Below are positions 35,125 through 58,117 of a stretch of DNA of 64,000 nt, piece after piece. A model generated the notes under the pieces. It saw nothing but the letters and a program-made list of their open reading frames with translations. It was not told the DNA's origin and did not search any database. This stretch comes from a virus (lineage: Duplodnaviria > Caudoviricetes), in the IMG/VR virus record IMGVR_UViG_3300031519_000015, positions 9,208-73,207 of that record. One strand, given 5' to 3'. Both the position numbers and the translations under genes were made by a program. Within the stretch, counting starts at the first letter, position 1; each line of letters opens with the position of its first letter.

Positions 35125-35125
35125 T

Positions 35126-35440: not shown

Positions 35441-35455
35441 ATTTTCTCCTATCTT

Positions 35456-35484: not shown

Positions 35485-35488
35485 CAAC

Positions 35489-38226: not shown

Positions 38227-38228
38227 AA

Positions 38229-40278: not shown

Positions 40279-40288
40279 TACACTATCC

Positions 40289-41653: not shown

Positions 41654-41870
41654 TATTCTTATGCTCTATAAAGTCTTTATATAATCTATGTACTAATCTT
41701 TCCCCAGCCCTACGTCTAAAACAAGGCAACAAGCCGTGTACGCACAAAAACAAACCAGCTTTTATACAACATACCCCATGACCTACAGCGAATTTTAAAT
41801 GTTGCCAGTAAGTCATATTGTTGTTGTTTAAATGATCTTTCCACTTTTTTACCAAGCTTTGCATGACCAA
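41637..41870 (-). CDS. DUF6356-like small protein
   Basis: HLNNNNMTYWQHLKFA...LCVHGLLPC resembles the H-L...Y-x-x-H...HA-x-x-P pattern of this family. Confidence 0.5.
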   Translation of the reverse strand: MVMQSLVKKWKDHLNNNNMTYWQHLKFAVGHGVCCIKAGLFLCVHGLLPCFRRRAGERLVHRLYKDFIEHKNNVNNK

Positions 41871-42568
41871 TATCTAGCCTTCCATTTTGGGCCGGGATTA
41901 GCACAGTTGTGTCTAGCTCTAAAAGATTTTCGTCTTGCTGGATTGTCTTTTTTTATCGACATATTAGGATCACCAAAATTTACTTTGACTACATTACCAG
42001 ACCCATTTTTAACGTATACGCTTCTTTTCTTAGGCCCATCAGGAGTCAGAAATGGTTTTCCTAACTTAACTTTTTTGCCTTGATACTCAGCTGCCTTACC
42101 TTGATATACCAAGGTTGTATCGCCTTTTTTGTAAATGCCTTTTCGTCTGTATGTAAATTCTTCTCCGGTTTTTGGATGTTCATATTTATACGAACCGCCT
42201 TTACCTTTTCTCAGCAATTCAAAGTCTTCTTTAGTAACCTTGCCGTCTTTGTTTTTATCAAGTCCTTTTTTTTGCTTTTCTGAAGGTTCTGACTGAGCTT
42301 TCTTCCAAGCTTCTGGATCTGGTCTATCTTTATCGCCCTTCTTGGCAGGTTTATATTTTTTGCCTTCACGTTCTTTCTTTTTGCGAATATTTTCCCAGAG
42401 CGATGCAGCGTCATGTTCTTCTACTTCTTCGCCAAAATCTTCATATTCTGCTTCTGTTGGAACATAAAAATTTTCTTCTGTCAACTCTTCTTCAAAACCA
42501 TAGGTTTCTATAGTGTACTCAATATCTGCTTGGGACATTAAAGCTTTTTTATCTTCATTGTTCTTCAT
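41849..42568 (-). CDS. Mosaic acidic/basic protein with an EF-hand-like loop and a DUF6321-like C-terminus
   Basis: DKNKDGKVTKED loop; KVNFGDPNMSIKKDNPARRKSFRARHNC...ARYWSCKAW. Confidence 0.6.
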   Translation of the reverse strand: MKNNEDKKALMSQADIEYTIETYGFEEELTEENFYVPTEAEYEDFGEEVEEHDAASLWENIRKKKEREGKKYKPAKKGDKDRPDPEAWKKAQSEPSEKQKKGLDKNKDGKVTKEDFELLRKGKGGSYKYEHPKTGEEFTYRRKGIYKKGDTTLVYQGKAAEYQGKKVKLGKPFLTPDGPKKRSVYVKNGSGNVVKVNFGDPNMSIKKDNPARRKSFRARHNCANPGPKWKARYWSCKAW

Positions 42569-43442
42569 TGTTTTGTTCCTCGTATAAATATTTTTTGACT
42601 TGTTGTAGAATACTAATAACTTTTTCTTTTGATATACTCTCTGAAAAATGATCTATTGCTCCGCGAACGACTTCGCACTCTTCTTTCCCTGTAGCTTCCA
42701 TCCAGCCAAGAAAATAATTCCAAATTCTATCTTCTAAAGTGAGTGGGTATTTTACACCGTCTGGTCTCCCAAACCTATGCCACCAGCCTAATTGTGGTAT
42801 GCATATATTCTTACCGCCATTATTTCTAAACTTTTGAGCTATATATCCTTCTTCTCCACCAAACCCTTTGAATCCTTTATGTATTCCGGGCCAATTCTTT
42901 TTTTCAAAAGATAATAAACCCATGCCTTGCATGTTTATCTCGAAAGGTTTGCCTGCCTGATAGTCTTTTTTATTTGTACTCCAGACTCCATACATATTGC
43001 CTCGCCACTTATCTTCAAAATGTGTGGAGTAATTTGTTAAGTTGTCGTACAGAAGTGGTCCTTGAACCAAGTCTTTACAGTTTCTATTGTTTCTATAATA
43101 TGTTAATAAATACTCTAATGCTTCCCTCTGCAACATAACGTGACAGTCCATTATTAAAACATATTTTCCTACAGCCTCGTTTACTATATCATATTTATTA
43201 AAACTTGAACAACGATCTCGCTTCTCTACATACCTACCTAAGCCTTTCATGGCTAGATTAACGTATTTTTTTGTAGCTTTGCCATGCTCACTGTCTGGAT
43301 TGTTATCTAATATAACAATTTCTACTTGATCAGTTGACACTAAATCGTGATACATCCTTAAGCTTTGACAGGAAAAAACTACACCATTGTAGTCATCATA
43401 ACAAGCCATGCCTATTGTTAATAGTTTATCCGGGTGCTTCAT
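42555..43442 (-). CDS. GT2 (GT-A) glycosyltransferase
   Basis: LLTIGMACYDD...IVILDN...GKYVLIMDCHV...GFGGEE. Confidence 0.8.
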   Translation of the reverse strand: MKHPDKLLTIGMACYDDYNGVVFSCQSLRMYHDLVSTDQVEIVILDNNPDSEHGKATKKYVNLAMKGLGRYVEKRDRCSSFNKYDIVNEAVGKYVLIMDCHVMLQREALEYLLTYYRNNRNCKDLVQGPLLYDNLTNYSTHFEDKWRGNMYGVWSTNKKDYQAGKPFEINMQGMGLLSFEKKNWPGIHKGFKGFGGEEGYIAQKFRNNGGKNICIPQLGWWHRFGRPDGVKYPLTLEDRIWNYFLGWMEATGKEECEVVRGAIDHFSESISKEKVISILQQVKKYLYEEQNNEEQ

Positions 43443-44472
43443 AGAATCCTATGTCAAATCCTTCCCTACTACAATCTTTTATAGTTTTTTCCATTCCGTG
43501 TTCTTTTATATGGTTCTCTATATAAATACACATATTCTGGTCTGTTTCAGGCCACTTGGTCTTGCAAAAATGACACAAATTCTTACACTTCCAGTGCTTT
43601 CTGTTATAATCTAGGGGCTTGGGGGCGATATTTTCTCTAATTTCTTGTACTCTATTTTTTAACATTTCTAGGAACCTAGATTCGTCTTCTGAGGAAAAAC
43701 ACAGGCTAAAAGGTGACGGGTCAGGATCGCCATCTTTATCTTTATAGAAGAATATGCTCATTATTCTATTGGGGAACTCTGGGTATAATTTAGATATAGC
43801 ATAGTAATACAATAATAACTGTGGATCATTCTCTAGTTTTTTGTAGTCTTTTACCTCTCCAGTAGCCCAATCCATTCTTCTTCCAGTTTTCCAATCTATA
43901 ACCTCTATTGTATCGTCGTTAATCTTGGTTACAAGGTCAATTGTTCCTTTGATTGCTAGCTGTCCTTGAACCATCTCTCCGTTGCGCTCATACTCAAACT
44001 TAGCCCAATCCTCCTCAATAGGTATATCAAAGTGGGGTTCAGGGAAGTGGATGTTTCTTAATCTGGGGTCAAACTGTCCATCGCTATGGGTTAGGAAGCA
44101 CCAAGCGGTGGTTGCTATATCTTGCCTGTCCTTGTTGGTAAAGCTATGGTGAGATCCTTTAGCGTAAGAATCTATACTTAGATCAATCAATTGGTCCACT
44201 AATTCCTTAGTGTGTAATTCTGATTTTTTGCACTTAAATTTACCTATAGCATCATCATCAACTCTTAAGAACTTTACTTTGGGCTTGTCTTGTTCATATT
44301 TTTTTAACCCAGCCAAGACCTCCATGACTTTGTGAACCATCGTTCCCATGTCAGCCTTTTTGCCACTTTTTGATTGATAGCCAAGAACATATGTTATGAA
44401 GTACTGCATTTGGCAGTATGCATAATTATTATAACTTGAAGATCTAATGTATGTTACTAGCATTGATATCAC
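43426..44472 (-). CDS. RecB/AddB-like PD-(D/E)xK exonuclease
   Basis: SSSYNNYAYCQMQYF, GTMVHKVME, KGTIDLV, EVIDWKTG, QLLLYY, C-terminal CKNLCHFC. Confidence 0.82.
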   Translation of the reverse strand: MISMLVTYIRSSSYNNYAYCQMQYFITYVLGYQSKSGKKADMGTMVHKVMEVLAGLKKYEQDKPKVKFLRVDDDAIGKFKCKKSELHTKELVDQLIDLSIDSYAKGSHHSFTNKDRQDIATTAWCFLTHSDGQFDPRLRNIHFPEPHFDIPIEEDWAKFEYERNGEMVQGQLAIKGTIDLVTKINDDTIEVIDWKTGRRMDWATGEVKDYKKLENDPQLLLYYYAISKLYPEFPNRIMSIFFYKDKDGDPDPSPFSLCFSSEDESRFLEMLKNRVQEIRENIAPKPLDYNRKHWKCKNLCHFCKTKWPETDQNMCIYIENHIKEHGMEKTIKDCSREGFDIGFYEAPG

Positions 44473-45184
44473 TCCAGATGTGTTTTTGTTCTTCTAAAAT
44501 TTTAATTAAACCAGCAACGTCAGTATCGTTATCTACAACATGGTCAAACTTAGACCAATCGAAATTATCACGATCTAGAGCAGATTCACACCTGTGGTTG
44601 TCTGAGTACACATCTCGTGTTAATCTTAGAACGATGCCACCAGCCTTTTGTATGGCATCAATCTCGTTAGGAAATCTTACATCTGGTATTAATGCTACAG
44701 AAGATTGTTCTTCTTGAATTAATTTGAGTGTATAATCTACCCATACCGTGTCTTTTATTTTTCTCATAATATCTGTTCCAAAATATTGTAAAAACTCTCT
44801 AGCTGTCATCTTATGTTTCCAACCGTTCTGGCTATATGGAGTTTGAGTATTCTTATCTTCATCAGTTCCATACACTTGTCTTGGCTCAAGATCAAATAAA
44901 GAAACAGATAAATGCTTAAGACAATCAGCAAAGTGATAAAGTTTAACGTGGGGCCACAACTCTTGTTCAGCGTATGACACAAAGTCTGTGTCTTTTCTTG
45001 TAATATCAAATATTCCCCAACCCTTTGCACCTTTAACGTCTTGAGTCTCTATTTCTAGCTCACCCTTGTCGCCAATGTCAAAGTCTGACACCATTGCACG
45101 ATCTTTAATGATACAGCCTGTGATAAAATTAGCTACTGTATTTTTACCAGCTTGCTTCCTCCCAGATATCCCAATTATTCTCAT
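44444..45184 (-). CDS. Deoxynucleoside monophosphate kinase (T4 gp1-like)
   Basis: IIGISGRKQAGKNT, HFADCLK, REFLQYFGTDIMRK, PDVRFPNE, HRCE. Confidence 0.85.
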   Translation of the reverse strand: MRIIGISGRKQAGKNTVANFITGCIIKDRAMVSDFDIGDKGELEIETQDVKGAKGWGIFDITRKDTDFVSYAEQELWPHVKLYHFADCLKHLSVSLFDLEPRQVYGTDEDKNTQTPYSQNGWKHKMTAREFLQYFGTDIMRKIKDTVWVDYTLKLIQEEQSSVALIPDVRFPNEIDAIQKAGGIVLRLTRDVYSDNHRCESALDRDNFDWSKFDHVVDNDTDVAGLIKILEEQKHIWSDINASNIH

Positions 45185-46203
45185 TAGTAAGTACCTTTCA
45201 ATTCGCTAAGTATATCTTTCTTAATTTTATAAACAGACATGTCTCCAACATCCTTATCTGATAACTTTGGAAAAGTCAGCTTATACATACGACCAAACTC
45301 TCTTTTCATTTGAACCATTGCTTCTCTACCAGCTTGATCGTTATCCATTAGTACAATTAGGTGTGTAACAGCAAGTTTCTTAATTTTATTTGACTGTTCT
45401 TTAGAAATACTTTTACCAAACACACTAACTGCATTCCTTACACCCGATTCATGTAGTTTCCAAACATCTCCTTGTCCTTCTAGTATATAAAGACAAGAAG
45501 TTTCTTCTGCCCTCTGTATTGCTCTGTGATAATTATAAAAATAATTTCTCTTATTAAATCCCGTGGGTGATATTAAGAATTTTGGCATACGATATTCTTT
45601 TATTGATCTACCTATCATGCCAACTAATAGTTCTCCATTGTCATTGTGGATAGGTATAATAGACCTTTCTTTCATTATACCCTGTTCGTGGCAATCTCCC
45701 ACATCAAAATAGTTTAAAGTTGATTTTTTAAAACCTCTACCTATGAAATAATTAGAAGGTTTTGATACTTCATGATGGAACTTTATGGGTTTGTCGTCTA
45801 AACACTTACAAGTTTGGTTCATGAATTTAATTATACTAGCAAAGTCTTCATCCTCATCTTCTATGTGTACTTCCGAAGTGAAACTAGTAGATTTAATGTT
45901 GAATTCTTCCTTCACCCATTTTAAAACATCTTTAAATTCTACATTAGTACCAGATTGATTAGATAGTGTTCCTTGTATAAGTGCAAATATATCGTTACCA
46001 TGTTCCTGCTGGCAGTCTCTTGTCCAACACTTCCATATACCTTTTTCTTGAGAGAAAGAAAAAGCTCTTGGGTTGTCACTGTTTTCGTGAACAGGACATG
46101 TTGAATAGATATTATCATTAAAGACTTCGCACTTCATGCCTAGCTTTTTAAACACAGCTTCGGCACTATTGTTAAGCTTCTTCTTGATTTGCTGTAAGTT
46201 CAT
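45184..46203 (-). CDS. dnaG: DnaG-like DNA primase
   Basis: CHC2 zinc finger CPVH...WKCWTRDC; Toprim ILEGQGDV and LMDNDQAG. Confidence 0.88.
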   Translation of the reverse strand: MNLQQIKKKLNNSAEAVFKKLGMKCEVFNDNIYSTCPVHENSDNPRAFSFSQEKGIWKCWTRDCQQEHGNDIFALIQGTLSNQSGTNVEFKDVLKWVKEEFNIKSTSFTSEVHIEDEDEDFASIIKFMNQTCKCLDDKPIKFHHEVSKPSNYFIGRGFKKSTLNYFDVGDCHEQGIMKERSIIPIHNDNGELLVGMIGRSIKEYRMPKFLISPTGFNKRNYFYNYHRAIQRAEETSCLYILEGQGDVWKLHESGVRNAVSVFGKSISKEQSNKIKKLAVTHLIVLMDNDQAGREAMVQMKREFGRMYKLTFPKLSDKDVGDMSVYKIKKDILSELKGTY

Positions 46204-47641
46204 TTGCTACTTTTTTGATAGAGTCATTGTCCACTAAACCAGTATCACCAATAGGTTGATTTTTGAATTCATTTCTAGTTCTAAGTTCTAGCAACTTTGC
46301 GTGTGCGCCTTGCATTTGCATATTAATATAATCACCGTCATCCATCCCAGCCCCATGTCTTGATACAATTGGTACTAGTTTTCTATTACCAGCTTGAGGT
46401 CCGTCCTCTGCTAATTCTTCTGGCGACTTAGCCTTAAATATACTAAACGATGTACACAGCCATATTAAACGGTCTGATCCACTTACAGCATCAGTACTTT
46501 CTTTAGTAATGCCATCTCTATTTAATTGCACAAAAGATAAACATGGTATGTCCAGCTTTACGCATAAATTATGTAAAGAAGTTATCTGAAACCCCAAAGC
46601 TTGATACTCTTGCATATTATTGTTGATAGAAGCGGAAGACATAAGCTTTAAGTAGTCATAGACAACTACGCAATCATTCGTCTTGCCCATCTCGTCTGAC
46701 TTAACCTCTTGTACTATCCATCTCTTAATTATATTTAATATTTGTTCAAACGGCTTGCCAGCTACACTCACATAGCTATATGGTATGGTAGATAGTTTTT
46801 CCACTGCCATTTGCACCTTTTCGTTTTTTATAGAATCTTCTGTGAATTTACCAGTTGCTACTTCATTGATAGGTACTCCGCTTATGTTTGCAATCAATCT
46901 ATTTAAATGATCTTCTTTAGACATCTCTGTGTCTAATACTAATACGGGTACTCCATCCGAGGATACGTTAAGGGCAACATTGTCAGCAAATACCGACTTA
47001 CCAACTTTTGGTCTTGCAGAAACAAGATCAACGCATTTTCGTCGAAGACCGCCACCAATGGCTTCGTCGTATCGCGTGAATCCCGTGGGTATACCAATGA
47101 TATCACACTTGTTTTCTTCGAGAAATTTGACATAATCTTCTATTCCTGCTCCTATCTTTTCTGGATTCTCACCACCATCATCCTCTCGTAAAAAATCTGT
47201 AACTGGATTTTCAAGTATTTGTATAATGTCATTGACACTCTCTGTCCCACTAACCTTGTCCACATCCTTGTGTATTTTCATGGTCAGTTTTTTTATTTTA
47301 CGAGCAAACTCAAACTTTTTCATCTGTATAGCAAAGCTAAATATGTTTTCCTGACTTACTGGAAAATCATACAAAGACTTTATGTAGCCTAATTCTTGCT
47401 TCGTGCTAATTTGATCAATGCAATTTAGCTGTTCTGCTGAAGCTAGCAACGTTGCTATGTCTGGGACTTGATCATTAGATATGATATCATCTATACATCT
47501 GTAAATAATTTTGTTATTTTTGTTTCCAAAACTGTCTACTGATATTAAATCTGAAACTGCAACATATGCATCTATACCGTATTGCAACAAGCCTGCAAGT
47601 ACAGCTCTTTCAGCTCCAACATCTAAGAGTTTTTCTTCCAT
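46172..47641 (-). CDS. dnaB: DnaB-like replicative helicase
   Basis: ERAVLAGLL N-domain; ARPKVGKS Walker A; LDTEMS; VVVYDYLKLM; SFVQLNRD; SGSD. Confidence 0.92.
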   Translation of the reverse strand: MEEKLLDVGAERAVLAGLLQYGIDAYVAVSDLISVDSFGNKNNKIIYRCIDDIISNDQVPDIATLLASAEQLNCIDQISTKQELGYIKSLYDFPVSQENIFSFAIQMKKFEFARKIKKLTMKIHKDVDKVSGTESVNDIIQILENPVTDFLREDDGGENPEKIGAGIEDYVKFLEENKCDIIGIPTGFTRYDEAIGGGLRRKCVDLVSARPKVGKSVFADNVALNVSSDGVPVLVLDTEMSKEDHLNRLIANISGVPINEVATGKFTEDSIKNEKVQMAVEKLSTIPYSYVSVAGKPFEQILNIIKRWIVQEVKSDEMGKTNDCVVVYDYLKLMSSASINNNMQEYQALGFQITSLHNLCVKLDIPCLSFVQLNRDGITKESTDAVSGSDRLIWLCTSFSIFKAKSPEELAEDGPQAGNRKLVPIVSRHGAGMDDGDYINMQMQGAHAKLLELRTRNEFKNQPIGDTGLVDNDSIKKVANELTANQEEA

Positions 47642-48075
47642 TATTTAGTACCTGAGCATTTGTCGCAACGATAAAACTCACCATGTACAAAGTTGGCATT
47701 TACCTTGGTACTCTTACCGCAAACATGACAGGTAACACTTTTTTTTCTAGGAGGCTTTCTGTTTCTAGGAGTAGGCTTAATTTTTGGTGTTTCAACATCC
47801 TTACCTCTACACTCGCCTTGGTCAGTCCACTGGTTTTTGCCAGCTTTTACTGGGCTTCTTCTCCTAGAAGTCAGAGAGTCTTTTTGTTTCATAGTAAAAT
47901 CTCCATCAACAGCTTCTGAAATTGGTTCTTCGTGCTGAAGTCTATCTATAGAAGGAGGATGTGTGGTAAAAGGCTTGTTTGGAACCTCTGGGTCAAAACT
48001 GCCCCCAGATAATGCTTTCAATAAAGCCCGCTTTTGTTCTTCTGTCAACGTTTTTATAAACTCATTCATACTCAT
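47641..48075 (-). CDS. Hypothetical protein with a C-terminal zinc ribbon
   Basis: CHVCG...CDKC. Confidence 0.5.
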   Translation of the reverse strand: MSMNEFIKTLTEEQKRALLKALSGGSFDPEVPNKPFTTHPPSIDRLQHEEPISEAVDGDFTMKQKDSLTSRRRSPVKAGKNQWTDQGECRGKDVETPKIKPTPRNRKPPRKKSVTCHVCGKSTKVNANFVHGEFYRCDKCSGTK

Positions 48076-48557
48076 GTTCTTTTACCTTTCTCTAATAGTA
48101 TATCTGCTTTACGTTTTAATTCATATATTTTACCGTCAAGTGCCTGTATCCTTGACTCTGCAATCTCACGATAGTGATCTACTGTTGCTGCGTATTCATC
48201 GTTTACAATTATAAGTGGTCTACGTTCCTCATATTTAGTATACTTACTAAACTGATCGTGGTTTTTTGCAACCATTTTATTTAGCTTGTCGTTACACCAA
48301 TTTAGAGCAATCTTCTGCATATTTAATTCATCTTGTAGATGTGTGGAGTAGCTATATAGTTGATACGACCAATCAAATAGTTCTGCTTGGGTAAGAGAAC
48401 TGATGGTTTCCCTATCAGCATTAGCACATCTATGCCAATCATCTCTAAACTTCTTATTAAACCTAGCATTGCTGGCATTCAAGAAGTCATCAACCATAGC
48501 TTTCAAGTCAGCCAACTGCTCACTCGCCGTTTTCAATTTGATCTCTCCATTGCTCAT
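48072..48557 (-). CDS. Helical/coiled-coil protein, possibly a UvsY-like recombination mediator
   Basis: All-helical 161-aa sequence near recA and dnaB; the UvsY resemblance rests only on size and pattern. Confidence 0.3.
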   Translation of the reverse strand: MSNGEIKLKTASEQLADLKAMVDDFLNASNARFNKKFRDDWHRCANADRETISSLTQAELFDWSYQLYSYSTHLQDELNMQKIALNWCNDKLNKMVAKNHDQFSKYTKYEERRPLIIVNDEYAATVDHYREIAESRIQALDGKIYELKRKADILLEKGKRT

Positions 48558-48945
48558 CTGTATCTGAATACCTCAATACTATTATATCAATTTTGTTCAA
48601 TCCACACCACTCTATTTTATCTTCATCCTTTGCTTTTGCAATGGCAAAGTCTGCTTTATTCTTATGAAAGAATGGCGTATACTTATAATGCTGTTGACCA
48701 TGCACCTCTACAGCTAGCATAATCTGTGGTATATAAAAGTCTAAATACAACACGCCTTTTCTGTGCGATGGGGTACTTCCCGGCAATTTTACTTCTTCAA
48801 GTATTCTATAACTATGGTAGATAGTCTTCAAGAGATTTCTTGCGCGAACGTGAAACTTTGATCTCTTCCGCTTGTCGTTTGCGTCTACTGAATAGCTTGT
48901 TAAATTCCAAGCGTACTCTCTCCCATTTATACCAGTAACTTTCAT
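48520..48945 (-). CDS. Vsr-like/DUF559 endonuclease
   Basis: YLDFYIPQIMLAVEVHGQQHY...KDEDKIEWC...IIVLRY. Confidence 0.7.
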   Translation of the reverse strand: MKVTGINGREYAWNLTSYSVDANDKRKRSKFHVRARNLLKTIYHSYRILEEVKLPGSTPSHRKGVLYLDFYIPQIMLAVEVHGQQHYKYTPFFHKNKADFAIAKAKDEDKIEWCGLNKIDIIVLRYSDTDEQWRDQIENGE

Positions 48946-49015
48946 TCAATATTCCTATCACAAGTTTAGCCAGAATAACTCCAGCAGCAATTTCAAATAT
49001 ATTAATTATACTCAT
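48812..49015 (-). CDS. Small membrane protein, 67 aa
   Basis: N-terminal hydrophobic helix IFEIAAGVILAKLVIGIL; ATGA-coupled to the upstream small ORF. Overlaps the N-terminus of the 48520-48945 ORF as called. Confidence 0.35.
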   Translation of the reverse strand: MSIINIFEIAAGVILAKLVIGILNESYWYKWERVRLEFNKLFSRRKRQAEEIKVSRSRKKSLEDYLP

Positions 49016-49131
49016 TTTTTAATTTCCTTGCTACCCCTAGTGTTTTTAGGCACATAGGGGCAGTTCTTACACCCGCTACCACAACAAGCACCTCTACTAA
49101 GTAAATACTCTCTACTCAGTGGTTGTGTCAT
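49012..49131 (-). CDS. 39-aa Cys-rich microprotein, DUF5522-like ([39 protein letters not shown])
   Basis: My translation. RGxCCGxGCxxCPY motif; overlaps the DUF1559 stop and the next start; not in the ORF track. Confidence 0.7.
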
Positions 49132-50096
49132 TGATTGATTTCTCCACCAGCTCTTGTAATCTGTGTAGCAAATACGCTCAAATTTACGTTCTCATTAATA
49201 GTTCTCACTGAACCGTCAGCGTAACAAGCGTTCATAATGCCGGGATGAAAACTAAATGCTTCACCATTATTAGTAACTCCAAAAGGAATATTACCAGCAC
49301 AATTTTTACACTTGTCTCCATTGCTATCCATGCCGTCTAATTTAAATGGCCCAACACTATCAGCCCAACCGATACACTGATTAGTATCACCAGTAGGGGT
49401 TCCACCATTATTAGTATCAGCTTTATAAGTGTCAGGTCTACTTCCACATTCAATAATCAACATAGTATTAGAAAATCCATCTCTAATGTGAGCATCTCTA
49501 GTTACAGCGTCTTTAATTAGACACCCTTCGTTTCTATCTTTTGCTGCATAGATATCAGAAGCAGCAGGGAATACTTTACTCTTGACTCCCGTGAATGTCT
49601 CATAATCTGTATATCCAAGATTATTAGGGTTCATGCTAATAGCAGCACTGTCATCATCTCTACTAGGCCCATCCACACTAGCATAACCACCAGCGGGAGG
49701 CATAGCAGATGGACACTTGAAGACATTTAAATTTGCAGATAATACTGTAGCATTTTGCTCCCACCAATTTTTAGTAAAATCATATTGGTCTGCTATCGCC
49801 CTTTGTTCCATTTGCCCTAGAACAAACGCTCTCCAACTATGCTCTGTGCCAGAACGATTGCCTGTGTTAGATTTACCAGCAGAATCAATAGTCCAAGAAG
49901 CAGCGGGAAAGTATCGTTGTGAGTCCAAGCTACTGTGCATAGCAAGACCTTGTTGTTTTAAGTTATTTGCACATGACATTCTTCGTGCAGCTTCTCTAGC
50001 TTGCTGTACGGCAGGCAACAAAAGTCCAACAAGTACGCCGATAATAGCAATGACCACAAGTAGTTCGATAAGTGTAAAACCTTTTCGTTTAAACAT
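49128..50096 (-). CDS. DUF1559 prepilin-type N-terminal cleavage/methylation protein with an H-X9-DG C-terminal motif (planctomycete type)
   Basis: MFKRKG|[48 protein letters not shown]...SW...[17 protein letters not shown]. Start set at MFKRK after RBS aaaagga. Confidence 0.93.
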
Positions 50097-50158
50097 ATCG
50101 TGATTCCTTTTCAATTAATAGTAGGTATAAAGCGAGAGGTACACATTGTACCCTTAAT

Positions 50159-50173
50159 GTAATATTATACCCC
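50159..50173 (-). promoter_or_regulatory. Candidate promoter GGGGTATAATATTAC upstream of the DUF1559 gene
   Basis: Perfect TATAAT in the intergenic gap between recA and DUF1559; related to the motif at 58797-58811. Confidence 0.45.
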
Positions 50174-50204
50174 TGTAATATTTTAAAACAGTGTTAGGAT
50201 TGTA

Positions 50205-51317
50205 TTAAAATAACTCTTTAATCTGATCGTATACAAGCTGGGAAATATCTGGGTTATCATTTAAGAATATGGCTAAATTATTTGACCCCTGAAACTTAAA
50301 AAACCTTTCAATGTCTTCTGGCTTGTCAGGCACTTCATTTGCTTTCATAATTTTTTGTATTGCCGGATGTTCTAGGTTATCAATCGCACATTGAATCGTA
50401 TACCAAGCTCCAGCAGTTTTAATCAGTCTAAACTCACAGGCTATTTGCACAACCTCTTGAACTTCATCCAGACCAATTCCATAACGAATCCAACTTTCTG
50501 CTGTGCTGTTTGGAGTACCACCAGCGCATGATGTTTTAACATTCCAATTAGCAATCTGACCAACGTGAGGTCCAGTATCCTTTGGAACTTGCCATCTACC
50601 ACGATGGGTAATAACCATATTAGTACCAGCCTGATATTGCAACATGTTGCCACAGTCTGCCATCTTTGCTGGTGCGTATGGAGAACCACCAGTGTTTGCA
50701 ATATTATGAGTCACAGCAATAAGAATTGTTTTATTCTTCATGAGAGAGCCGCTGATACGCTTAAAAAACATAGATAACAATCTAGGTAGTGCGTTACGTA
50801 CACCTGTTCGCACTTCACCGTCAAGCTCTACTGATGGAACCATATTGGATAATGAGTCTGCGATAATTAAACAACCCGGATCATTGTTAATATAATACTC
50901 TGTAATATTTAAGAATTCTTCTGCCGACAATATCTTATCATCTGTAGACTGTATAATTAAAATCCGCTCAGGATCTAAGCCCTTTATGCCATCGAAGTTT
51001 TGCTTAGAGAGTCTTCCCTCTGTGTTGAGATAAATAACACGTTTGTCTTGAGCTTGACATTTGGCGGCGAAGTGTAAGGCAGTTGTTGTCTTTCCAGACT
51101 TAGGATCTCCCGTCATGACGACCACAGAACCTTCTCGTAGTCCACCTCCAAGAGCAATGTCTAAAGCTGGAGACACACCAATTACTTCTAGCTGATTAAT
51201 ATTTTCTAGGACTTCAGTACCAGTGCTAACAACATCTCCGTATTTACTCACAACGGAATTACTTACAACGTCTGTTTCAAATTTATTTACTACTTTTTTC
51301 TTCTTAACCTTGCTCAT
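50205..51317 (-). CDS. recA: RecA/UvsX recombinase
   Basis: SPALDIALGGGL..G, GDPKSGKTT (Walker A), YLNTE, IIADSLSNM (Walker B). Confidence 0.9.
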   Translation of the reverse strand: MSKVKKKKVVNKFETDVVSNSVVSKYGDVVSTGTEVLENINQLEVIGVSPALDIALGGGLREGSVVVMTGDPKSGKTTTALHFAAKCQAQDKRVIYLNTEGRLSKQNFDGIKGLDPERILIIQSTDDKILSAEEFLNITEYYINNDPGCLIIADSLSNMVPSVELDGEVRTGVRNALPRLLSMFFKRISGSLMKNKTILIAVTHNIANTGGSPYAPAKMADCGNMLQYQAGTNMVITHRGRWQVPKDTGPHVGQIANWNVKTSCAGGTPNSTAESWIRYGIGLDEVQEVVQIACEFRLIKTAGAWYTIQCAIDNLEHPAIQKIMKANEVPDKPEDIERFFKFQGSNNLAIFLNDNPDISQLVYDQIKELF

Positions 51318-51844
51318 AGATCCCTCAATTTGTTTATAGAACTTTTCTTACTTGAATATTGCTTGCTTCTTGTTTTCAATTTTTTTACTTCTGGCTCTAC
51401 AGTCGCAGCGTCTGCTTCCGCTGACTGATCACGCGATTTTAGAAAATCCTTGTGTTCTTTATCATACCTCTTTATTGCTTCTAACGCAACCTGATTATAC
51501 TTCCATCCTCTAGGTCCATAAGCTTTAAGTCCAATGTGGTATATATTTTTAAAGTGATCTGATTTTACAGCAGCAAGTATTAATGCAGGTTCATATTTCT
51601 TCTTCAAACCTCTAGCGGCTTTCATGTTTCTCATAAACATATCATGATACTTATCACCAGCCGTCCAGAACTTGTAAGATGGTTTATCCATCTTAAATGC
51701 GTCTGTCCATCTAAGGATAAGATACTCTGCAAAGTATGATTCAAATGTGCAATGTTCGCCAGTATGAATATGTTTATAGTTGTATTCTTCTGACCACTCT
51801 TTTTGATATTTTTTACTAAATAATTCAGGTTTGTTGTTTTGCAT
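51314..51844 (-). CDS. Hypothetical protein, 176 aa
   Basis: Coupled ORF in the operon. Confidence 0.55.
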   Translation of the reverse strand: MQNNKPELFSKKYQKEWSEEYNYKHIHTGEHCTFESYFAEYLILRWTDAFKMDKPSYKFWTAGDKYHDMFMRNMKAARGLKKKYEPALILAAVKSDHFKNIYHIGLKAYGPRGWKYNQVALEAIKRYDKEHKDFLKSRDQSAEADAATVEPEVKKLKTRSKQYSSKKSSINKLRDL

Positions 51845-52253
51845 TATGGTAAATTATAGCCTCTTTAAAACACTTACTAACATCTTCTTCAAATTCATCT
51901 TCTGGAATCAAGGATGGTGTAGACCACAGTATTTTACTAACTTTGTTACCATTAACAATACCAGTAACAAAAGTGTCTATAGATTCTCCACCAAAATTAG
52001 CTTTAACACTTCTGATTACATAAGCACCATCAGCTTGTGATACATCTTGTTTAACACGGTGTGACTTATATTGCAAACCAACAGATCTCAATTTAATATT
52101 TGAATTGTCACAATTTTTTTTAAACTTTAACCAATCATCAAAATTTTGCAAGTAATATGTGTCACTATTTGTGACCGCAACTATCCATATATTCTTTGTA
52201 TTAGTGCCTTTATTATACTCTTGTCTAAATTCCTTATCCCCACATAAAATCAT
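51825..52253 (-). CDS. Hypothetical protein, 142 aa
   Basis: Coupled ORF in the operon. Confidence 0.55.
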   Translation of the reverse strand: MILCGDKEFRQEYNKGTNTKNIWIVAVTNSDTYYLQNFDDWLKFKKNCDNSNIKLRSVGLQYKSHRVKQDVSQADGAYVIRSVKANFGGESIDTFVTGIVNGNKVSKILWSTPSLIPEDEFEEDVSKCFKEAIIYHNAKQQT

Positions 52254-52255
52254 TA

Positions 52256-52555
52256 TTATTCCTTTTTATCGGTAATGCTTGTAATACAACTTGACTGCTT
52301 CTTTTCAAAAGACTTTCTTCTATCGTCAGCAATGGTAGATGAAGTTTCAGACATTATTGTGACACCTTTCTGGCGTATAAAATGATCACCAGCAGGGTTC
52401 ACTAATTTATTTTTAGAGTGATTCTTTTTAACGTATGTTTCAACTGATTTTACAGTTCTATCTAAATCGGCAGCTATGTCAACAGCGTCCATTGTTTCAT
52501 GATGGTTGTCGATATAAAATGTTTCTGCTTTACCTAGTGGTCCTTTTTTAGACAT
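52256..52555 (-). CDS. Small HTH-like protein, 99 aa
   Basis: MDAVDIAADLDRTVKSVETYV resembles a helix-turn-helix. Confidence 0.45.
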   Translation of the reverse strand: MSKKGPLGKAETFYIDNHHETMDAVDIAADLDRTVKSVETYVKKNHSKNKLVNPAGDHFIRQKGVTIMSETSSTIADDRRKSFEKKQSSCITSITDKKE

Positions 52556-52883
52556 ATATAAAACTCCTGTTTGCTTTGGTAATGTGAATCTTGTTTTTTG
52601 TAATTAAATATTTCATATAAGAATCTAATACCGCCTGAGTAGTAGTTCTAAGCTTAACACCCATCCTTCCAGCATTTCTATGACCATCTATACCAAATGG
52701 GTCGTACAGAATTCCGTTTAGTGTTAGAACAGAATATGTCTTCTCTTTCCTATTGTCATAGTATAGCAGATCAACAACTTGAGCATACACTAGTTCGTCA
52801 TCCGTTGTAACTGGCTTTCCTTTTCTATTGTACTTCTTTATTGTTTTTTTTTCAATGCCCCTGCCAAAGTCTTGTGTATCCAT
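52548..52883 (-). CDS. Hypothetical protein, 111 aa
   Basis: Coupled ORF in the operon. Confidence 0.5.
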   Translation of the reverse strand: MDTQDFGRGIEKKTIKKYNRKGKPVTTDDELVYAQVVDLLYYDNRKEKTYSVLTLNGILYDPFGIDGHRNAGRMGVKLRTTTQAVLDSYMKYLITKNKIHITKANRSFIYV

Positions 52884-53221
52884 TATTCACCCTTTACTAT
52901 ATAGTTTGTTTTTTGTTGCGCTGACATACTATTAATCTTTGTACGCATTTCTTTATTTTCTTTAACCTTACCATGTTCTTGTTTGTGTTTTTCTTCTATC
53001 TCAGATCTTTGATAATGGCCCATGTTTGACCAATTTTTATCAGCTTGACCACCAATAGTATTAGAGCTGTTTTTCATGAAAGAACCAAGCCCACCATATG
53101 GTACTCTTTCTAAGGAATGTTTACCACACGATGGGCATAAAGTCAACGCTTCGTCATGAATAGATTGTTTAATATCCTTAAGAGTCTCGCCACATTCATG
53201 GCATCCATAGTCATATAACAT
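52883..53221 (-). CDS. FmdB-family zinc-ribbon protein
   Basis: MLYDYGCHECG...LTLCPSCGKHSLERV. Confidence 0.75.
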   Translation of the reverse strand: MLYDYGCHECGETLKDIKQSIHDEALTLCPSCGKHSLERVPYGGLGSFMKNSSNTIGGQADKNWSNMGHYQRSEIEEKHKQEHGKVKENKEMRTKINSMSAQQKTNYIVKGE

Positions 53222-53222
53222 A

Positions 53223-53396
53223 TTAGTACCATTCCTTATTCAATATTAACAATATTCTTCTTGCAAGTGCAGCCTGACCCACGATTCTACCATCAGTGTA
53301 GTCTTCGCCATAACCAATGGTAGCTTCGTGTGTCTTCTGATCTTCTATTTTGTCCTGACAAAGACGTATAAGCTTTGCCCTTTCATCTTCATTCAT
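53223..53396 (-). CDS. 57-aa hypothetical protein (MNEDERAKLIRLCQ...LILNKEWY)
   Basis: My translation; fills the gap between phoH and the FmdB gene exactly, with an ATGA overlap at the phoH stop. Confidence 0.6.
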   Translation of the reverse strand: MNEDERAKLIRLCQDKIEDQKTHEATIGYGEDYTDGRIVGQAALARRILLILNKEWY

Positions 53397-54076
53397 GACT
53401 CTAATGCGTAAAGCACTGCTCCAATAATTCCATTCCTCTGTATATCATGATACTCTAATTTGCAAATTCCAACACCCGGAATATTAGATAGTTTTTCAAC
53501 ACAAGTATCTAAACCACTATATTTAAAGATGTCTGTTTGTTTATTATCACCATTTATAAGCACTTTAGAATGCTTTCCCATTCGTGTAACAAACATTTTA
53601 ATCTGTTCTATAGTACAGTTTTGAGCCTCATCCAGTATCATGTATGAATCATGAAAGGTAGAACCCCTCATGGTTTCCAGAGGTTCAAATCTAATTCTAC
53701 GTTGATTAAAATACATTCCAAATTTGTCTCTACCTAAAAAGAATTTTAAATTTTCTTCCATAGGTTGAAGATAAGGTTTGATTTTATCATTTAGTTCTCC
53801 CGGTAAAGATCCAAGATCTCGACCAGTACAAACTAAAGGTCTAGTAACAATGATAGTATCTATTTCATCTTTAAGCAATTTTTGTGCTGCGATTCCAGCT
53901 GCTATGAAAGATTTACCACTGCCAGACGGACCTGTGCAAAAAACAACATCGTTTTCCACAATAGATCTAATATAATTTTTTTGGTTTTCAGTCTTAGCCT
54001 CCAGAACGTTTGGTTTGTATGCTTTTTTTTCTTGACGCTTTTTTCGATTGTTATGTGCCTGTGCTGCCAAAACCAT
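53393..54076 (-). CDS. phoH: PhoH-like ATPase
   Basis: FCTGPSGSGKSF, TRPLV, LGSLPG, PLETMRGSTF, ILDEAQN, TRMG, GDNKQTD, DIQRN. Confidence 0.92.
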   Translation of the reverse strand: MVLAAQAHNNRKKRQEKKAYKPNVLEAKTENQKNYIRSIVENDVVFCTGPSGSGKSFIAAGIAAQKLLKDEIDTIIVTRPLVCTGRDLGSLPGELNDKIKPYLQPMEENLKFFLGRDKFGMYFNQRRIRFEPLETMRGSTFHDSYMILDEAQNCTIEQIKMFVTRMGKHSKVLINGDNKQTDIFKYSGLDTCVEKLSNIPGVGICKLEYHDIQRNGIIGAVLYALES

Positions 54077-54506
54077 TACTCCCTCGTTGTGAGGTTTCCA
54101 ATTCTTCTCTTAAAAGTAAAGAGATACCGGGAACCTCTTGGAATATAATCTGCGCGATTCTATCCCCACGTTTTATTTCTACATCTACATTAGAAGTATT
54201 GTATAAACAAACCATGATCTCTCCTCTGTAGCCAGAGTCTATAACTCCAGCTAAAACATCTATGCCCTTCTTAACTGCTAGCCCAGATCTGGGCCAAATT
54301 AATCCAGCCATATTGTCAGGCATATCAAACGATATACCAGTTTTAATTGTTTGTCGTTCTTTTGCAAATACCCAAACGTTTTCATCAGCAACCAAGTCAA
54401 ACCCAGCGTCTGATCTATGTGACTTGAATGGCATCTGTGCCGTTTCTGTCAATAACTTATATGATACGAATCCCATCATTGATATTCCTCCTAAATTATA
54501 TCGCAT
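54051..54506 (-). CDS. dut: Trimeric dUTPase
   Basis: AGFDL, PRSGLA, GVIDSGYRGEI, RIAQII, RGSNGFGSTG. True start is probably the downstream MMGF. Confidence 0.95.
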   Translation of the reverse strand: MRYNLGGISMMGFVSYKLLTETAQMPFKSHRSDAGFDLVADENVWVFAKERQTIKTGISFDMPDNMAGLIWPRSGLAVKKGIDVLAGVIDSGYRGEIMVCLYNTSNVDVEIKRGDRIAQIIFQEVPGISLLLREELETSQRGSNGFGSTGT

Positions 54507-56683
54507 TTACCACCAGCACAAGCTACTTCTTGCACTGGATTTACATTATTTTCTTCTTCTATAACTTTAGTATAGTCAATGTCTTTATATTCACGTTTAA
54601 TGTCTAGCCATTCTTTCCAATTATAAACATCTTTCATGCAGTATGTTAGTTGTTTTAAATCACCATCCATATATTTGTCAGCAAACTTTTGACATTTATC
54701 TTGGTATTCTTTTTTATCTGTACCTTTTGCTCTTTTACCAACACCTAGAAGACTATCACATGCTGCCCACAAGTTGTCTTCATAAAGAGAAAGTCCAACC
54801 TCTATTAAGCCACTAACAAACATTGCAGCATCTCCATAGTGCTGTATCTGCTCGCTAGGTAGATAAACTGTTGTGAATGGAGCTTGTGCGTAATCTTTGT
54901 CACCAGCGATTGGCAATAAAGAAACACCACAGAAATACTTACGATGCTTATAAATAAAGTTTGTAACTTCTTCCCATTCGTCTGGTTTAACATTGATAGT
55001 ATTAGAAACATTATGCGTTAACCAAGGTTGAGTACACTGTTTTGGATTTGTGCCACTTACCACCCAATTTCTTTGTGTACTTTTTACGTATTCTAATAAA
55101 GCAACCGCATCAACTTGGTTTTTAATCTTTGCTCCATCTGGAACTTCTACGCAGAAAGCTACAACATCATCTGAGTCATTATTAGACCATACGGACTCTT
55201 CACAGGCTCTAGGATTGATTGTTTTAAAGTACTGGTAGATTGGTTCCATTTTATTTGCTTGGACTCTACGAATGTATCTCTTGGCGTGATGTGGGTGTAT
55301 ACCAGAGGATGTTCCAAGGATACAACTTGATGTACCTTCTGGCTTGACACATGTTGTACGAGCCGCTTGATTAACACTAATTAATTTAGCCAACTCTTTA
55401 TTTGTTTCTTTGACTATTTCCGCGCCCTTCTTTTGCACTTCTGGGTCAAGACAAATTTCATGTTGTTCCATGATGCCTGTCATTGACACTCCAAGTAAAG
55501 CTTCACGACTAATAATTCTTTCTGAAACCTCTCCGAGATATGGGAAGCTAGCAAATCCAGCTTGTAGTGTTCCAATGATTGCAGCGGAAGCACACGCTTC
55601 ATAAAATTCTTTTTTGGTTGTTACCTTAGAGCAGTTAATAGTCGATAGATTACAAGCCTGCCATCCAGTTTTACCTGTCTGTTCATCTACGGGCCACATG
55701 CCAATTTCTACACATGGGTTGACAATGAGTTCTGTAGAATCAGACCAAACAAATCCCGGCTCTCCAAACTCTTTTACGGATTGCATTAGTTCGGAAAACT
55801 GTTCTTTAGTTGTTTCGTTTCGTAATAGTAAAGCAGAGTTGTTTGACCTTCCACGCTGTGGATTTTCTGTGAACCAATTACCAGTTTTGGCTTTAGCCAT
55901 TTCTTCGTCGTCAGCAGAAAAAAGACAAATTGTAGCACTACGACGAACACCTCCGCTAATTACAGCATCAGCGGCATACATTACTATATCATATGCTTCA
56001 ATGGGTCTAAGTTTCTTCTGTCCATTTTTAATAGCTCCGTCAAGGGTCTTCTTTATGCTTGTAAGAGCATTTCTTAAAGGATCTGGGCCGGGAGCCTTTC
56101 CTCCGCTAGACTTTAAATGAGAGCCTGCTGGACGTATTTCTGAGTAATCAAAAACAATTGTTTTGCCGTTATATTCTGGGAATAGATTGTCTCCCTTAAA
56201 GTAACTAGAGATAAGAACTCCAACAGCATCTGACCAGCCTTCGATAGAATCATCAATAACAAATTTCTTTTGACCATTCTTGCCTTTAATTAAGTTGGGT
56301 AGTTTAGCAATATGATGTTTTTGCACAGAAAAGCCAGTTCCACATCCGCATAATAGAAGATACATGCATTCTTGAAAAAATCTTGTTCTATCAACATATG
56401 ATGCAATACAATTATATATTCTAGCATTATGTTTAAATATTGGAGATCCACCAAATTGCAAAGCGCGTTGAGATCCAAGAATCTTTTTCTTCTTCATATC
56501 GTCGTATGCTTGATTGATAGCATTTTTGACTTCTGGATTAGATTCATCCGTTGCATATTTATCTAACATCATTTGTCTTACTCTATCAACTGATTCACCC
56601 CAAGTTTCTCTCCTTAACTTCTCTGAATCCCACCTTGCATATTTAGACACGAAAGTGTAATTCATCAATGACTTGATTGACAT
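54491..56683 (-). CDS. nrdJ: Ribonucleotide reductase, probably class II monomeric (adenosylcobalamin-dependent)
   Basis: RIYNC, CGCGTGFSV, NPCVEI, QACNL, LLGVSMTG, TTCVKPEGTSS, C-terminal ACAGGKCDII Cys pair. No ATP cone and no R2 gene adjacent. Confidence 0.75.
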   Translation of the reverse strand: MSIKSLMNYTFVSKYARWDSEKLRRETWGESVDRVRQMMLDKYATDESNPEVKNAINQAYDDMKKKKILGSQRALQFGGSPIFKHNARIYNCIASYVDRTRFFQECMYLLLCGCGTGFSVQKHHIAKLPNLIKGKNGQKKFVIDDSIEGWSDAVGVLISSYFKGDNLFPEYNGKTIVFDYSEIRPAGSHLKSSGGKAPGPDPLRNALTSIKKTLDGAIKNGQKKLRPIEAYDIVMYAADAVISGGVRRSATICLFSADDEEMAKAKTGNWFTENPQRGRSNNSALLLRNETTKEQFSELMQSVKEFGEPGFVWSDSTELIVNPCVEIGMWPVDEQTGKTGWQACNLSTINCSKVTTKKEFYEACASAAIIGTLQAGFASFPYLGEVSERIISREALLGVSMTGIMEQHEICLDPEVQKKGAEIVKETNKELAKLISVNQAARTTCVKPEGTSSCILGTSSGIHPHHAKRYIRRVQANKMEPIYQYFKTINPRACEESVWSNNDSDDVVAFCVEVPDGAKIKNQVDAVALLEYVKSTQRNWVVSGTNPKQCTQPWLTHNVSNTINVKPDEWEEVTNFIYKHRKYFCGVSLLPIAGDKDYAQAPFTTVYLPSEQIQHYGDAAMFVSGLIEVGLSLYEDNLWAACDSLLGVGKRAKGTDKKEYQDKCQKFADKYMDGDLKQLTYCMKDVYNWKEWLDIKREYKDIDYTKVIEEENNVNPVQEVACAGGKCDII

Positions 56684-56712
56684 GTACCGTCCTCGTATTT
56701 TAAAAGAATAAA

Positions 56713-57357
56713 TTAGTCGTTAAACAAACGTTCTAGCACTTTATTTACAACCCATTTAATAATCATGGGTAGTACCACATATACAAAAAGCCAAGTAAGA
56801 ATGACTGAGCCATAACGTTTTTCAATATCGTTTTGAACGTTTTCTTCAACAAAGTCGTAACAATTATTGTAATGAACGTACCTGTCCGAAAAATCAGCAT
56901 TATCGAAAGTAACACCTGACTGATGACATATTGTAGCCCATTCCTTTGCATATTGCAAGCACTTCTTTGCAATTTTTCTATCTCTATCTAAAGAATATTC
57001 TGAACAAATTTCGTCTTCAATTTTAACACATTCTTCTATGTGTTCTGAATCAATTCTGCTTGGGTCTCCTGCAAATACAGAACCCTCATAAGAGAAGCTT
57101 AAGTCTGGGAAGTTTCTAAGTTTTACAGTACCTCCCGTCTCGCCAAACACAAGACCTTCAACGTATGCGTACAAAGTAATAATCCTAGTTACTTCTGCCT
57201 TGGGTGGATTAGACCCAAATGATATTTCTGTTAAACCACCCTTATGTTCAATGTTAGCTATCAAAGGAGATTTCGATTTTATTTTAAATCCATTTACTGT
57301 GTAACCATCTTTTGAAAATAATTCTGTAAATATTGTTGATATTTCTTTTGGTGACAT
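56713..57357 (-). CDS. Hypothetical protein with a C-terminal transmembrane helix
   Basis: SVILTWLFVYVVLPMIIKWVV. Confidence 0.55.
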   Translation of the reverse strand: MSPKEISTIFTELFSKDGYTVNGFKIKSKSPLIANIEHKGGLTEISFGSNPPKAEVTRIITLYAYVEGLVFGETGGTVKLRNFPDLSFSYEGSVFAGDPSRIDSEHIEECVKIEDEICSEYSLDRDRKIAKKCLQYAKEWATICHQSGVTFDNADFSDRYVHYNNCYDFVEENVQNDIEKRYGSVILTWLFVYVVLPMIIKWVVNKVLERLFND

Positions 57358-57361
57358 CTGA

Positions 57362-57844
57362 TTACCTCGTGTGAATTAAAACCCAAGCTAGACCTGAAAA
57401 GTTTGCACTAAGATCTATTTTCTCCTCTTGTGTAAGTGTGTGGTTATCTTCTCCTATAGAGCTTTTTATTAAATTAATAATTTCTTTTCCAAGTCCACCA
57501 TACTTATCTACTAAACTGTCTTGAAAAAATATTTTTCCCGCTAAACTATACACATCATTAACTTCTTGAGAAGTTGTTTTATAAGATAAAATTCTTTGCG
57601 AAAATTCGTAATTAAAAATTGCTATTTTAGCTCTATCGTCTGGATCTGAAATCATACTAGAAAAATTACTAACTTTTGCTAATACCTTGTCACTAGGTTC
57701 TTCTACTTTAATAATAGCGGTTGGTGGAGGTTTTGGAATTAAACTAGGAATCCAACTTGTAACATCACTACCAAACACTCCAAATATGATTAGCAGCAAT
57801 GCTAAAGCAGTTCTTTTTGTTTTGTGCATTTTATTCCTCGACAT
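57362..57844 (-). CDS. Hypothetical protein with an N-terminal signal/TM helix
   Basis: KTKRTALALLLIIFGVFGS then a Pro-rich linker. Confidence 0.55.
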   Translation of the reverse strand: MSRNKMHKTKRTALALLLIIFGVFGSDVTSWIPSLIPKPPPTAIIKVEEPSDKVLAKVSNFSSMISDPDDRAKIAIFNYEFSQRILSYKTTSQEVNDVYSLAGKIFFQDSLVDKYGGLGKEIINLIKSSIGEDNHTLTQEEKIDLSANFSGLAWVLIHTR

Positions 57845-58115: not shown

Positions 58116-58117
58116 TT

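Follow-up and report, generated by a model that had tools for sequence, protein, structure and literature searches.

Why would a large phage carry a single pilin-like gene from a protein family that belongs to planctomycetes, and what would such a gene do there? The question is raised by a stretch of 64,000 nucleotides (hereafter the window), positions 9,208 to 73,207 of IMG/VR virus record IMGVR_UViG_3300031519_000015, which is 73 kb long and about 46% complete; its genes for a DnaE-type polymerase, ribonucleotide reductase, DnaB, RecA and tail-fibre-like proteins bear out its assignment to a phage. In the window, a gene of the DUF1559 family lies between a RecA-like gene and the gene of the DnaB helicase, in a minus-strand block that also encodes a split DnaE-type polymerase and the ribonucleotide reductase. 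DUF1559 is the largest paralogue family of planctomycetes, with 68 copies in P. limnophila, two of which are essential, and its function is unknown (PMC10632474). We propose, with moderate confidence, that the phage copy is a host-derived, host-processed pseudopilin-like auxiliary ('moron'-type) gene of large marine planctomycete phages.

The phage protein and its planctomycete orthologue

The open reading frame (ORF) spans 49128-50114 on the minus strand, and its likely start codon is given with the other features in Table 1. In a Pfam search, the protein matched PF07596 (DUF1559, SBP_bac_10) at 140.7 bits (cut-off 23.3) over profile positions 1-266 of 268, the same result being obtained when the whole phage record was scanned with profiles, and PF07963 (N_methyl) at 34.4 bits directly N-terminal of the DUF1559 domain. 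The NCBIfam search added the prepilin domain TIGR02532 (32.3 bits) and the H-X9-DG domain TIGR04294 (31.5 bits, cut-off 19, residues 280-301). The complete DUF1559 architecture described in the initial annotation, with its KRKG/FTLIE leader, 21-residue signature and H-X9-DG motif, is therefore confirmed by the profiles and the sequence. The class III signal peptide of the window protein has Gly at -1 and Glu at +5; a prepilin-peptidase cut is predicted after Gly6, leaving Phe1 and Glu5 in the mature protein, and from this site we infer the processing itself. In an alignment of 102 sequences, the window protein retained all 24 invariant and all 38 near-invariant family columns, these columns including E11, R34, R39, C42, W88, C128, D164, D206, H284 and D294; G295 is nearly invariant (at least 90%). 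The GC content at third codon positions is 0.26 in the gene, compared with 0.29-0.31 in the flanking phage genes and 0.35-0.64 in the host orthologues described below, showing that the gene has adapted to the base composition of the phage.

Among the 120 best database matches, the phage sequences formed one clade and those of cellular contigs its sister. These contigs, which are named Pirellulales or Planctomycetaceae (marine) and are up to 2.9-3.0 Mb long, carry the planctomycete-signature families PSCyt1/2, PSD1 and DUF1501, plus sulfatases. Four candidate host metagenome-assembled genomes (MAGs; 2.9-3.9 Mb) each contain 25-40 DUF1559 paralogues, and in three of the four a single paralogue matched the phage protein at 52-54% identity, the next best reaching 38-39%. 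The closest phage-host pair is 60% identical. The phage copies and the host orthologue group formed a clade (support 98/97), and the best tree found, in which all phage copies constitute a single clade, was not rejected (P-value of the approximately unbiased test, p-AU, 0.56). Comparison with the planctomycete paralogues, proposed in the initial annotation as a check, thus places the phage copies beside one specific paralogue, and the phylogeny identifies the phage gene as the orthologue of that host gene. In the fourth MAG, the best match (L055; G001:C5:622594-623557, in a 3.4-Mb Pirellulales genome) is split over three frames and may be either a pseudogene or the product of long-read indel errors.

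The gene order around the orthologue also links phage and host. Wherever a cellular locus extends beyond the orthologue, the next gene downstream is phytase-like (PF13449), and the host operon reads DUF1559, phytase-like, small lipoprotein-like, choice-of-anchor-I, PSCyt/PSD1 and DUF1501. Four phage loci (L050, L062, L063 and L064) likewise have a phytase-like gene after DUF1559, and the phage and host phytase-like proteins are homologous (E=9e-42, with 66 invariant positions in common). These phytase-bearing phage copies branched first in the tree, the remaining copies forming a group with 100/100 support. The data are compatible with a single capture of the gene by phages, and the simplest history would be that the first two genes of the host operon were captured, that the enzyme was later lost in most lineages and that the pilin-like gene moved within the phage family.

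The AlphaFold (AF2) model of the protein (predicted local distance difference test score, pLDDT, 92.9; predicted template modelling score, pTM, 0.87) has an N-terminal helix of 52 residues, then a large mixed insertion and, at the C-terminus, a sheet bearing the H-X9-DG motif. With an exhaustive structural aligner, all 21 solved chains with Z of at least 2 were type IV pilins or pseudopilins, aligned over residues 4-321, which fits a pilin core with a large insertion, at scores too low for proof. Foldseek searches of PDB and BFVD returned no match at E<=0.001 and only weak pilin-helix rows, a sequence search of PDB matched the N-terminal helix only and found no solved DUF1559 structure, and no informative solved relative was found for the phytase-like and choice-of-anchor-I partners. 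The protein did not reach the GspG equivalog TIGR01710 (36.2 bits against 88.85) and is thus pilin-like rather than GspG. PHROG 3433 ('pilin') matched its N-terminal 40 residues (E=2.3e-7), and nothing equivalent to the DUF1559 globular domain was found in PHROGs, in BFVD or among 50,697 deposited phage genomes.

Spread among phages and the upstream control module

The distribution in viral metagenomes comprised 29 viral loci with one orthologue each (58-95% identity): 24 IMG/VR contigs at 70-95% identity and five more loci (L050, L051 and L062-L064). The reading frame was intact in all 29, and exactly one copy was present in each of five related records, two of which are CheckV-complete (157 and 195 kb). 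The median pairwise ratio of nonsynonymous to synonymous substitution rates (dN/dS) was 0.144 (range 0.04-0.27, 120 pairs), demonstrating strong purifying selection on the phage DUF1559 gene. A tblastn search of the 50,697 deposited phage genomes, which come from other hosts, gave no DUF1559 match.

The window arrangement, RecA, DUF1559, a 39-aa ORF, a 67-aa ORF and a 141-aa ORF, on to DnaB, recurred in 12 contigs. At least eight DNA sequencing runs from several studies (marine, brine and estuary) contain half or more of the stretch; one independent run tiles 48500-49981 and 50231-50700 at 99% or more, with the promoter and the RecA junction uncovered. A chimeric assembly, which the initial annotation had named as grounds for dropping its interpretation, is excluded by the common junctions in 12 independent contigs and by the runs from multiple studies. 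Contigs from RNA libraries of two studies matched parts of the gene and are 90-95% alike; these may be relatives or DNA carry-over and are not evidence of expression.

In the other genomic context, the gene stands after genes for a nucleotide-sugar epimerase and glycosyl- and sulfotransferases and before a 184-188-aa Cys-rich ORF, DUF6899 and rIIA/rIIB. The two contexts do not represent unrelated phage backbones, an idea that we rejected, given that DnaB (46-50% identity) and the DNA polymerase III alpha subunit (40-50%) are common to both; they are, as judged from these proteins, sublineages of one broad phage family. A genome with a window-like backbone (DnaB 79% identical) has the gene at the other position, and the window copy and that of L002 nest among the rIIA-side copies (support 99/97); forcing the RecA-side copies into one clade cost 121 log-likelihood units (p-AU 0.0003). 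The window protein shares 90-92% identity with copies from genomes in which DnaB shares just ~50%. Because the tree conflicts with the context and the protein is so much more similar than DnaB, alleles have evidently been exchanged between sublineages, and the phylogeny shows the gene to have passed between phage sublineages and positions. The block of a 184-188-aa ORF ending in PKCPYC...C.C, DUF6899 and rIIA/rIIB was seen in L003-L007, L011, L012, L018, L020, L050, L051 and L062-L064. The Cys-rich ORF had no Pfam or PHROG family, and its equation with the small lipoprotein-like gene of the host was rejected, the alignment being spurious.

The initial annotation had assigned the gene its own promoter, and a conserved promoter-like module was found in both contexts. 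Its order is one or two boxes, ~20 nt, GGGTATAAT or a one-base variant, a hairpin ~10 nt further on, a word resembling CCTACC and then the ribosome-binding site; apart from these elements, the upstream sequences have diverged between loci and contexts. In the window, TATAAT sits in a 108-nt gap after the RecA-like gene. GGGTATAAT was invariant in all eight aligned syntenic sequences (the window and seven loci), and GGTAT(A/T/G)AT was also found upstream of the gene in the other context. TATAAT alone was not above chance (six sites against 4.8 expected in a consensus scan), and a generic sigma-70 promoter scan did not pick the conserved -10 element. (C/T)TAACA boxes, often two at 11-bp spacing, were present in nearly every phage locus with upstream sequence available, ~20 nt upstream of the -10 element, and were rare elsewhere in the same loci; the two-box form is often CTAACA-N5-CTAACA, in 11-bp phase, and the degenerate TTAATA copy of the window overlaps the RecA-like stop codon. 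All 12 loci folded were predicted to have a perfect stem of 5-8 bp at the same position (z -1.1 to -4.0), with stem sequences that differ; RNAalifold gave no consensus for the leader because the stems are offset by 1-2 columns, and the evidence for the hairpin therefore consists of per-sequence folds and not of a consensus fold. The CTAACA...TATAAT module matched twice in the 64-kb window and sporadically elsewhere, and we rejected it as a general phage promoter; its rarity elsewhere in the loci argues that it is specific to the gene. The alignments indicate that this control module travels with the gene across contexts.

Upstream of the host orthologues, ~150-190 nt before the FTLIE codons, there are three to four CTCAT/CTCAC boxes with an exact 11-bp period (7878-7920 in L026; equivalent places in L027, L030, L037, L038, L040 and L049), conserved in genomes from 46% to 57% GC. 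Phased direct repeats are the geometry of OmpR/PhoB-type regulator sites. The three-box host pattern was found at the orthologue alone in two ~3-Mb genomes, and it could not be used to define a regulon. Direct repeats in 11-bp phase occur at the phage gene, the host orthologue and pstS (partially in the last), with box sequences that differ; that the phage and host boxes are bound by a common regulator, or that they have a Pho link, is unproven.

Table 1. Features of the DUF1559 gene, its upstream region and the ORFs that follow it (window coordinates)
Feature	Coordinates	Strand	Basis and remarks
CTAACA box (50192-50197) and degenerate TTAATA (50203-50208), 11 bp upstream	50192..50208	-	Alignment
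-10-like element GGGGTATAAT, TATAAT at 50164-50169	50164..50173	-	Invariant in aligned syntenic loci
Predicted leader hairpin GGGUACA-AUG-UGUACCU	50137..50153	-	Starts 11 nt downstream of -10
Ribosome-binding site AAGGA	50105..50109	-	8 nt before ATG 50096; conserved in upstream alignment
DUF1559 prepilin-like coding sequence	49128..50096	-	322 aa and stop; ORF list, translation, family matches, AF2 model
Leader peptide MFKRKG	50079..50096	-	Sequence and TIGR02532/PF07963 matches
Hydrophobic N-terminal half of long pilin helix (24 aa)	50007..50078	-	AF2 helix at residues 9-60
H-X9-DG motif, H284...D294-G295	49212..49247	-	TIGR04294; His-Pro-Gly encoded as CATCCCGGC
39-aa Cys-rich ORF, DUF5522-like (GCKNCPY)	49012..49131	-	PF17653, 37.8 bits (cut-off 25)
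67-aa hydrophobic peptide ORF	48812..49015	-	Start overlaps stop of 39-aa ORF; ORF list
141-aa ORF	48520-48945	-	92-97% identical across all syntenic phages

The start of the 39-aa ORF overlaps the DUF1559 stop (ATGA). Of the 12 syntenic loci, 11 have this ORF in the equivalent place with 78-90% conservation, L021 and L024 gave no match, and it belongs to the genomic context and not to the mobile gene. The 67-aa ORF is 48-97% conserved in syntenic loci and had no family match. The 141-aa ORF is more conserved than DnaB or RecA, and it matched nothing except, weakly, the N-terminal fold of a restriction endonuclease (PvuRts1I-like, E=0.008). Further along the minus strand, the DnaE-type polymerase is split into 35489-37048 and 38707-40278 with three ORFs between; in the complete genome G154 the matching polymerase region is broken by many stops, which suggests a low-quality stretch or a complex arrangement.

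Avoidance of CCWGG, first noticed in the DUF1559 gene, holds for the whole 64 kb, where no site was found against 60.7 +/- 7.6 expected. Every related phage locus in both contexts (L002-L025, L050 and L051) had 0-2 sites against 3-13 expected, and the candidate host loci were not depleted; most relatives of the rIIA context also lacked GGWCC (no site where 4-12 were expected), which the window's group did not. The loss of CCWGG suggests a shared exposure of these phages to a CCWGG-cutting restriction system.

Function, host and competing explanations

Neither Peptidase_A24 nor T2SSE was found in the five phage records, and Peptidase_A24 was present in three of the four candidate host MAGs. Because the phages have no prepilin peptidase or assembly ATPase, the DUF1559 protein must use host machinery. 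During infection, the N-terminal helix would insert the prepilin into the cytoplasmic membrane, the host prepilin peptidase would cleave and N-methylate it, and the type IV-filament-like (pseudopilus) machinery of the host would take it up as the functional equivalent of the host paralogue. Envelope capture or uptake with the phytase-like enzyme might be sustained or boosted in this way, possibly for scavenging organic phosphorus under the control of a response regulator of the host; of all the steps in this mechanism, the physiological benefit is the least secure, and it is unproven. A working copy is more likely than a 'poison' pilin, since no invariant residue has been lost, purifying selection acts on the gene and the enzyme partner was taken from the host along with it.

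From the genes in the operon and the phasing of the boxes, we suspect a function in substrate capture that is subject to regulation, possibly for organic phosphorus. In marine Synechococcus, phytase-like exoproteins rise with alkaline phosphatases under phosphorus stress (PMC4949707, PMC11020310), which we take as a lead only. The fuller proposal, that a nutrient-responsive pseudopilin-like subunit plugs into the planctomycete fibre/crateriform system of macromolecule uptake, together with the phytase-like enzyme and through host-regulator boxes carried by the phage, is tentative, and we put it forward as a possibility that may well prove wrong.

Several observations weigh against a host-derived, host-processed auxiliary gene of planctomycete phages. 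The structural Z scores are low, at or below 4.4 (PilA4 4.4, EpsG 4.0, PulG 3.1). The phage CTAAC and host CTCAY boxes differ at one position, and the pstS promoters of three MAGs have one exact CTCAY box with only partial 11-bp-phased neighbours. Searches for host DNA covered window 20001-60000: against 150 genomes of the order, window 40001-60000 matched only at the helix-coding stretch (50007..50078), the only part of the gene with nucleotide matches (70-80%) in many Pirellulales genomes, and against 121 genomes of the family, window 20001-40000 gave only CAG low-complexity matches. The link to a host through spacers of clustered regularly interspaced short palindromic repeats (CRISPR), which the initial annotation had suggested seeking, did not materialize, there being no spacer or prophage match in the 150 and 121 Pirellulales genomes sampled; one 29-nt host match was considered as a spacer and rejected, no CRISPR array being present there. 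The 64-kb window also contains no tRNA that might have pointed to a host. Moreover, DUF1559 has no known function (PMC10632474), so that 'working copy' says little about the role.

Other adverse points speak for a role in which the phage subunit would enter or jam the host filament machinery, or titrate the prepilin peptidase, so that the pili which competing phages use as receptors are altered or lost; superinfection would be excluded or the receptor masked. Of the 20 phage copies whose N-terminus is complete, nine (L002, L008-L010, L014, L015, L017, L018 and L023) carry Ala in place of Gly at -1 and a leader lengthened to 9-16 aa (for example, MFKKLTNFFRCQKRKA), and should be poor peptidase substrates; a change of this type is said to slow prepilin cleavage, as reported by Strom and Lory in 1991. 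The phage copies have also gained a C-x2-C pair that is missing in the host orthologues, and the phytase-like gene has been lost in the window's phage and most of its relatives, so that most lineages keep the pilin-like gene alone. The commoner context places the gene just upstream of rIIA/rIIB, a region that in T4-like phages holds exclusion-type genes, and some Pseudomonas phages are known to achieve exclusion with proteins that disable type IV pili. Against such a role, the globular domain has kept every residue that is invariant in the family, a dN/dS of 0.14 gives no sign of arms-race divergence, the source is a paralogue tied to an enzyme operon and no major pilin, the gene was first captured together with the enzyme, and the window copy has the canonical Gly(-1) site. 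The poisoning or receptor-masking role put forward in the initial annotation found no specific evidence, and we regard it as rather unlikely, though as a serious rival. The leaders fall into two classes in their own right, the short M..RKG form being found in the window, L013 and most rIIA-context copies and the long form in the nine loci listed above; Gly occupies the cleavage site in all cellular homologues examined.

As to the host, the phage family most probably infects pelagic, small-genome Pirellulales (Planctomycetota). A planctomycete host is the most economical assumption because the nearest cellular relatives are exclusively marine Pirellulales/Planctomycetaceae, a single paralogue is involved and the gene order is shared. 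The planctomycete host of the initial annotation is therefore supported by indirect evidence, namely the relatives, the paralogue and the cassette order. If the phages instead infected another marine phylum and had acquired the gene indirectly, it could work with any prepilin peptidase and would be no host marker; the G/FTLIE site is universal among type IV filament systems, the missing spacer and prophage links would be expected, and two tiny contigs binned as 'Rubritalea' (Verrucomicrobiota) bear the cellular orthologue. This is improbable, given that planctomycete-specific families occur on all long cellular contigs, PF07596 matched in none of 14 control genomes, the capture of two adjacent genes requires phage DNA inside such a cell, and no copy was found among the 50,697 deposited phage genomes of other hosts. 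The 'Rubritalea' MAG contigs (L031 and L034; NZ_JBDOPO01) are 1.7-1.9 kb long at ~1.6x coverage and carry the Pirellulales orthologue, one of them being identical in protein to a Pirellulales contig, which suggests mis-binning; they are probably contamination.

A neutral passenger, decaying remnant or assembly chimera, in favour of which one could cite only how common junk genes generally are in phages, has practically no likelihood left and is already refuted by the conservation data, namely the frame intact in 29 of 29 loci, the low dN/dS, the same junctions in 12 independently assembled contigs and the recovery of half or more of the stretch in at least eight DNA runs.

Significance and comparison with known systems

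Should the host-derived auxiliary gene be confirmed as such, abundant uncultured large marine phages with complete genomes of 157-195 kb would be assigned to Planctomycetota, and specifically to small-genome pelagic Pirellulales. A 2025 review of Planctomycetota makes a single passing mention of phage genes, on plasmids (PMC12673574), and our literature search found DUF1559 rarely mentioned and never in a phage, with no publication on this phage gene. By retaining a single paralogue, at first together with the adjacent enzyme gene, the phage would single out a tractable pair and offer a rare functional clue to DUF1559. The phased boxes, -10 element and leader hairpin would be an unusually clear case of a moron that moves as a regulatory unit, and the control cassette could serve as a promoter part in planctomycete genetics. 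If the uptake-subunit proposal is true, the gene would be the first auxiliary gene to act via a type IV-filament-like machine and would give the first experimental handle on DUF1559. Host-derived auxiliary or moron genes of phages are as such an already known kind; what is new here is that alleles are exchanged between contexts, that the control module with its hairpin is portable, in which order the cassette decayed, and that the leaders form two classes.

The closest known counterpart is the DUF1559 orthologue of marine Pirellulales/Planctomycetaceae, which is 52-60% identical over its full length, has a like leader type, the invariant residues and the H-X9-DG tail, and shares its phytase-like downstream neighbour with the early-branching phage copies. 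The phage copy differs in being phage-encoded and of phage base composition, in its shorter leader and extra C-x2-C pair, and in lacking a C-terminal extension of 15-25 aa; its promoter has CTAACA boxes and TATAAT, whereas the host has four CTCAY boxes, and the window copy is without the enzyme partner. With the major pseudopilins of type II secretion (GspG/PulG/EpsG) and the type IVa pilins, the only structural neighbours found, the phage protein shares a class III signal peptide, in which Gly(-1) is followed by Phe(+1) and Glu(+5), and, in the model, the long N-terminal helix on a C-terminal beta-sheet. It is, however, ~320 aa long instead of 130-160, ~150 residues being inserted between the helix and the sheet, and its gene lies outside any gene cluster for type II secretion or type IV pili; to our knowledge, a filament has been demonstrated for no DUF1559 protein. 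The likeness to PHROG 3433 ('pilin') is limited to the leader and helix. The exclusion proteins of Pseudomonas phages are likewise aimed at a type IV filament system, yet are not pilins.

We know of no Pho box defined for planctomycetes. The direct repeats of the phage gene, with their 11-bp period, have the geometry of PhoB/OmpR-type sites, and the kind of partner encoded in the host operon is linked to phosphorus stress elsewhere (PMC4949707). Like the pstS and phoA genes of cyanophages, the DUF1559 gene is a host-derived envelope gene of marine phages that is conserved under purifying selection, and nutrient acquisition is proposed here for it too. The cyanophage genes are reportedly controlled by the PhoBR system of the host, as described by Zeng and Chisholm in 2012; they encode a binding protein and a phosphatase, whereas the product of the gene described here would be a pilin-like subunit.

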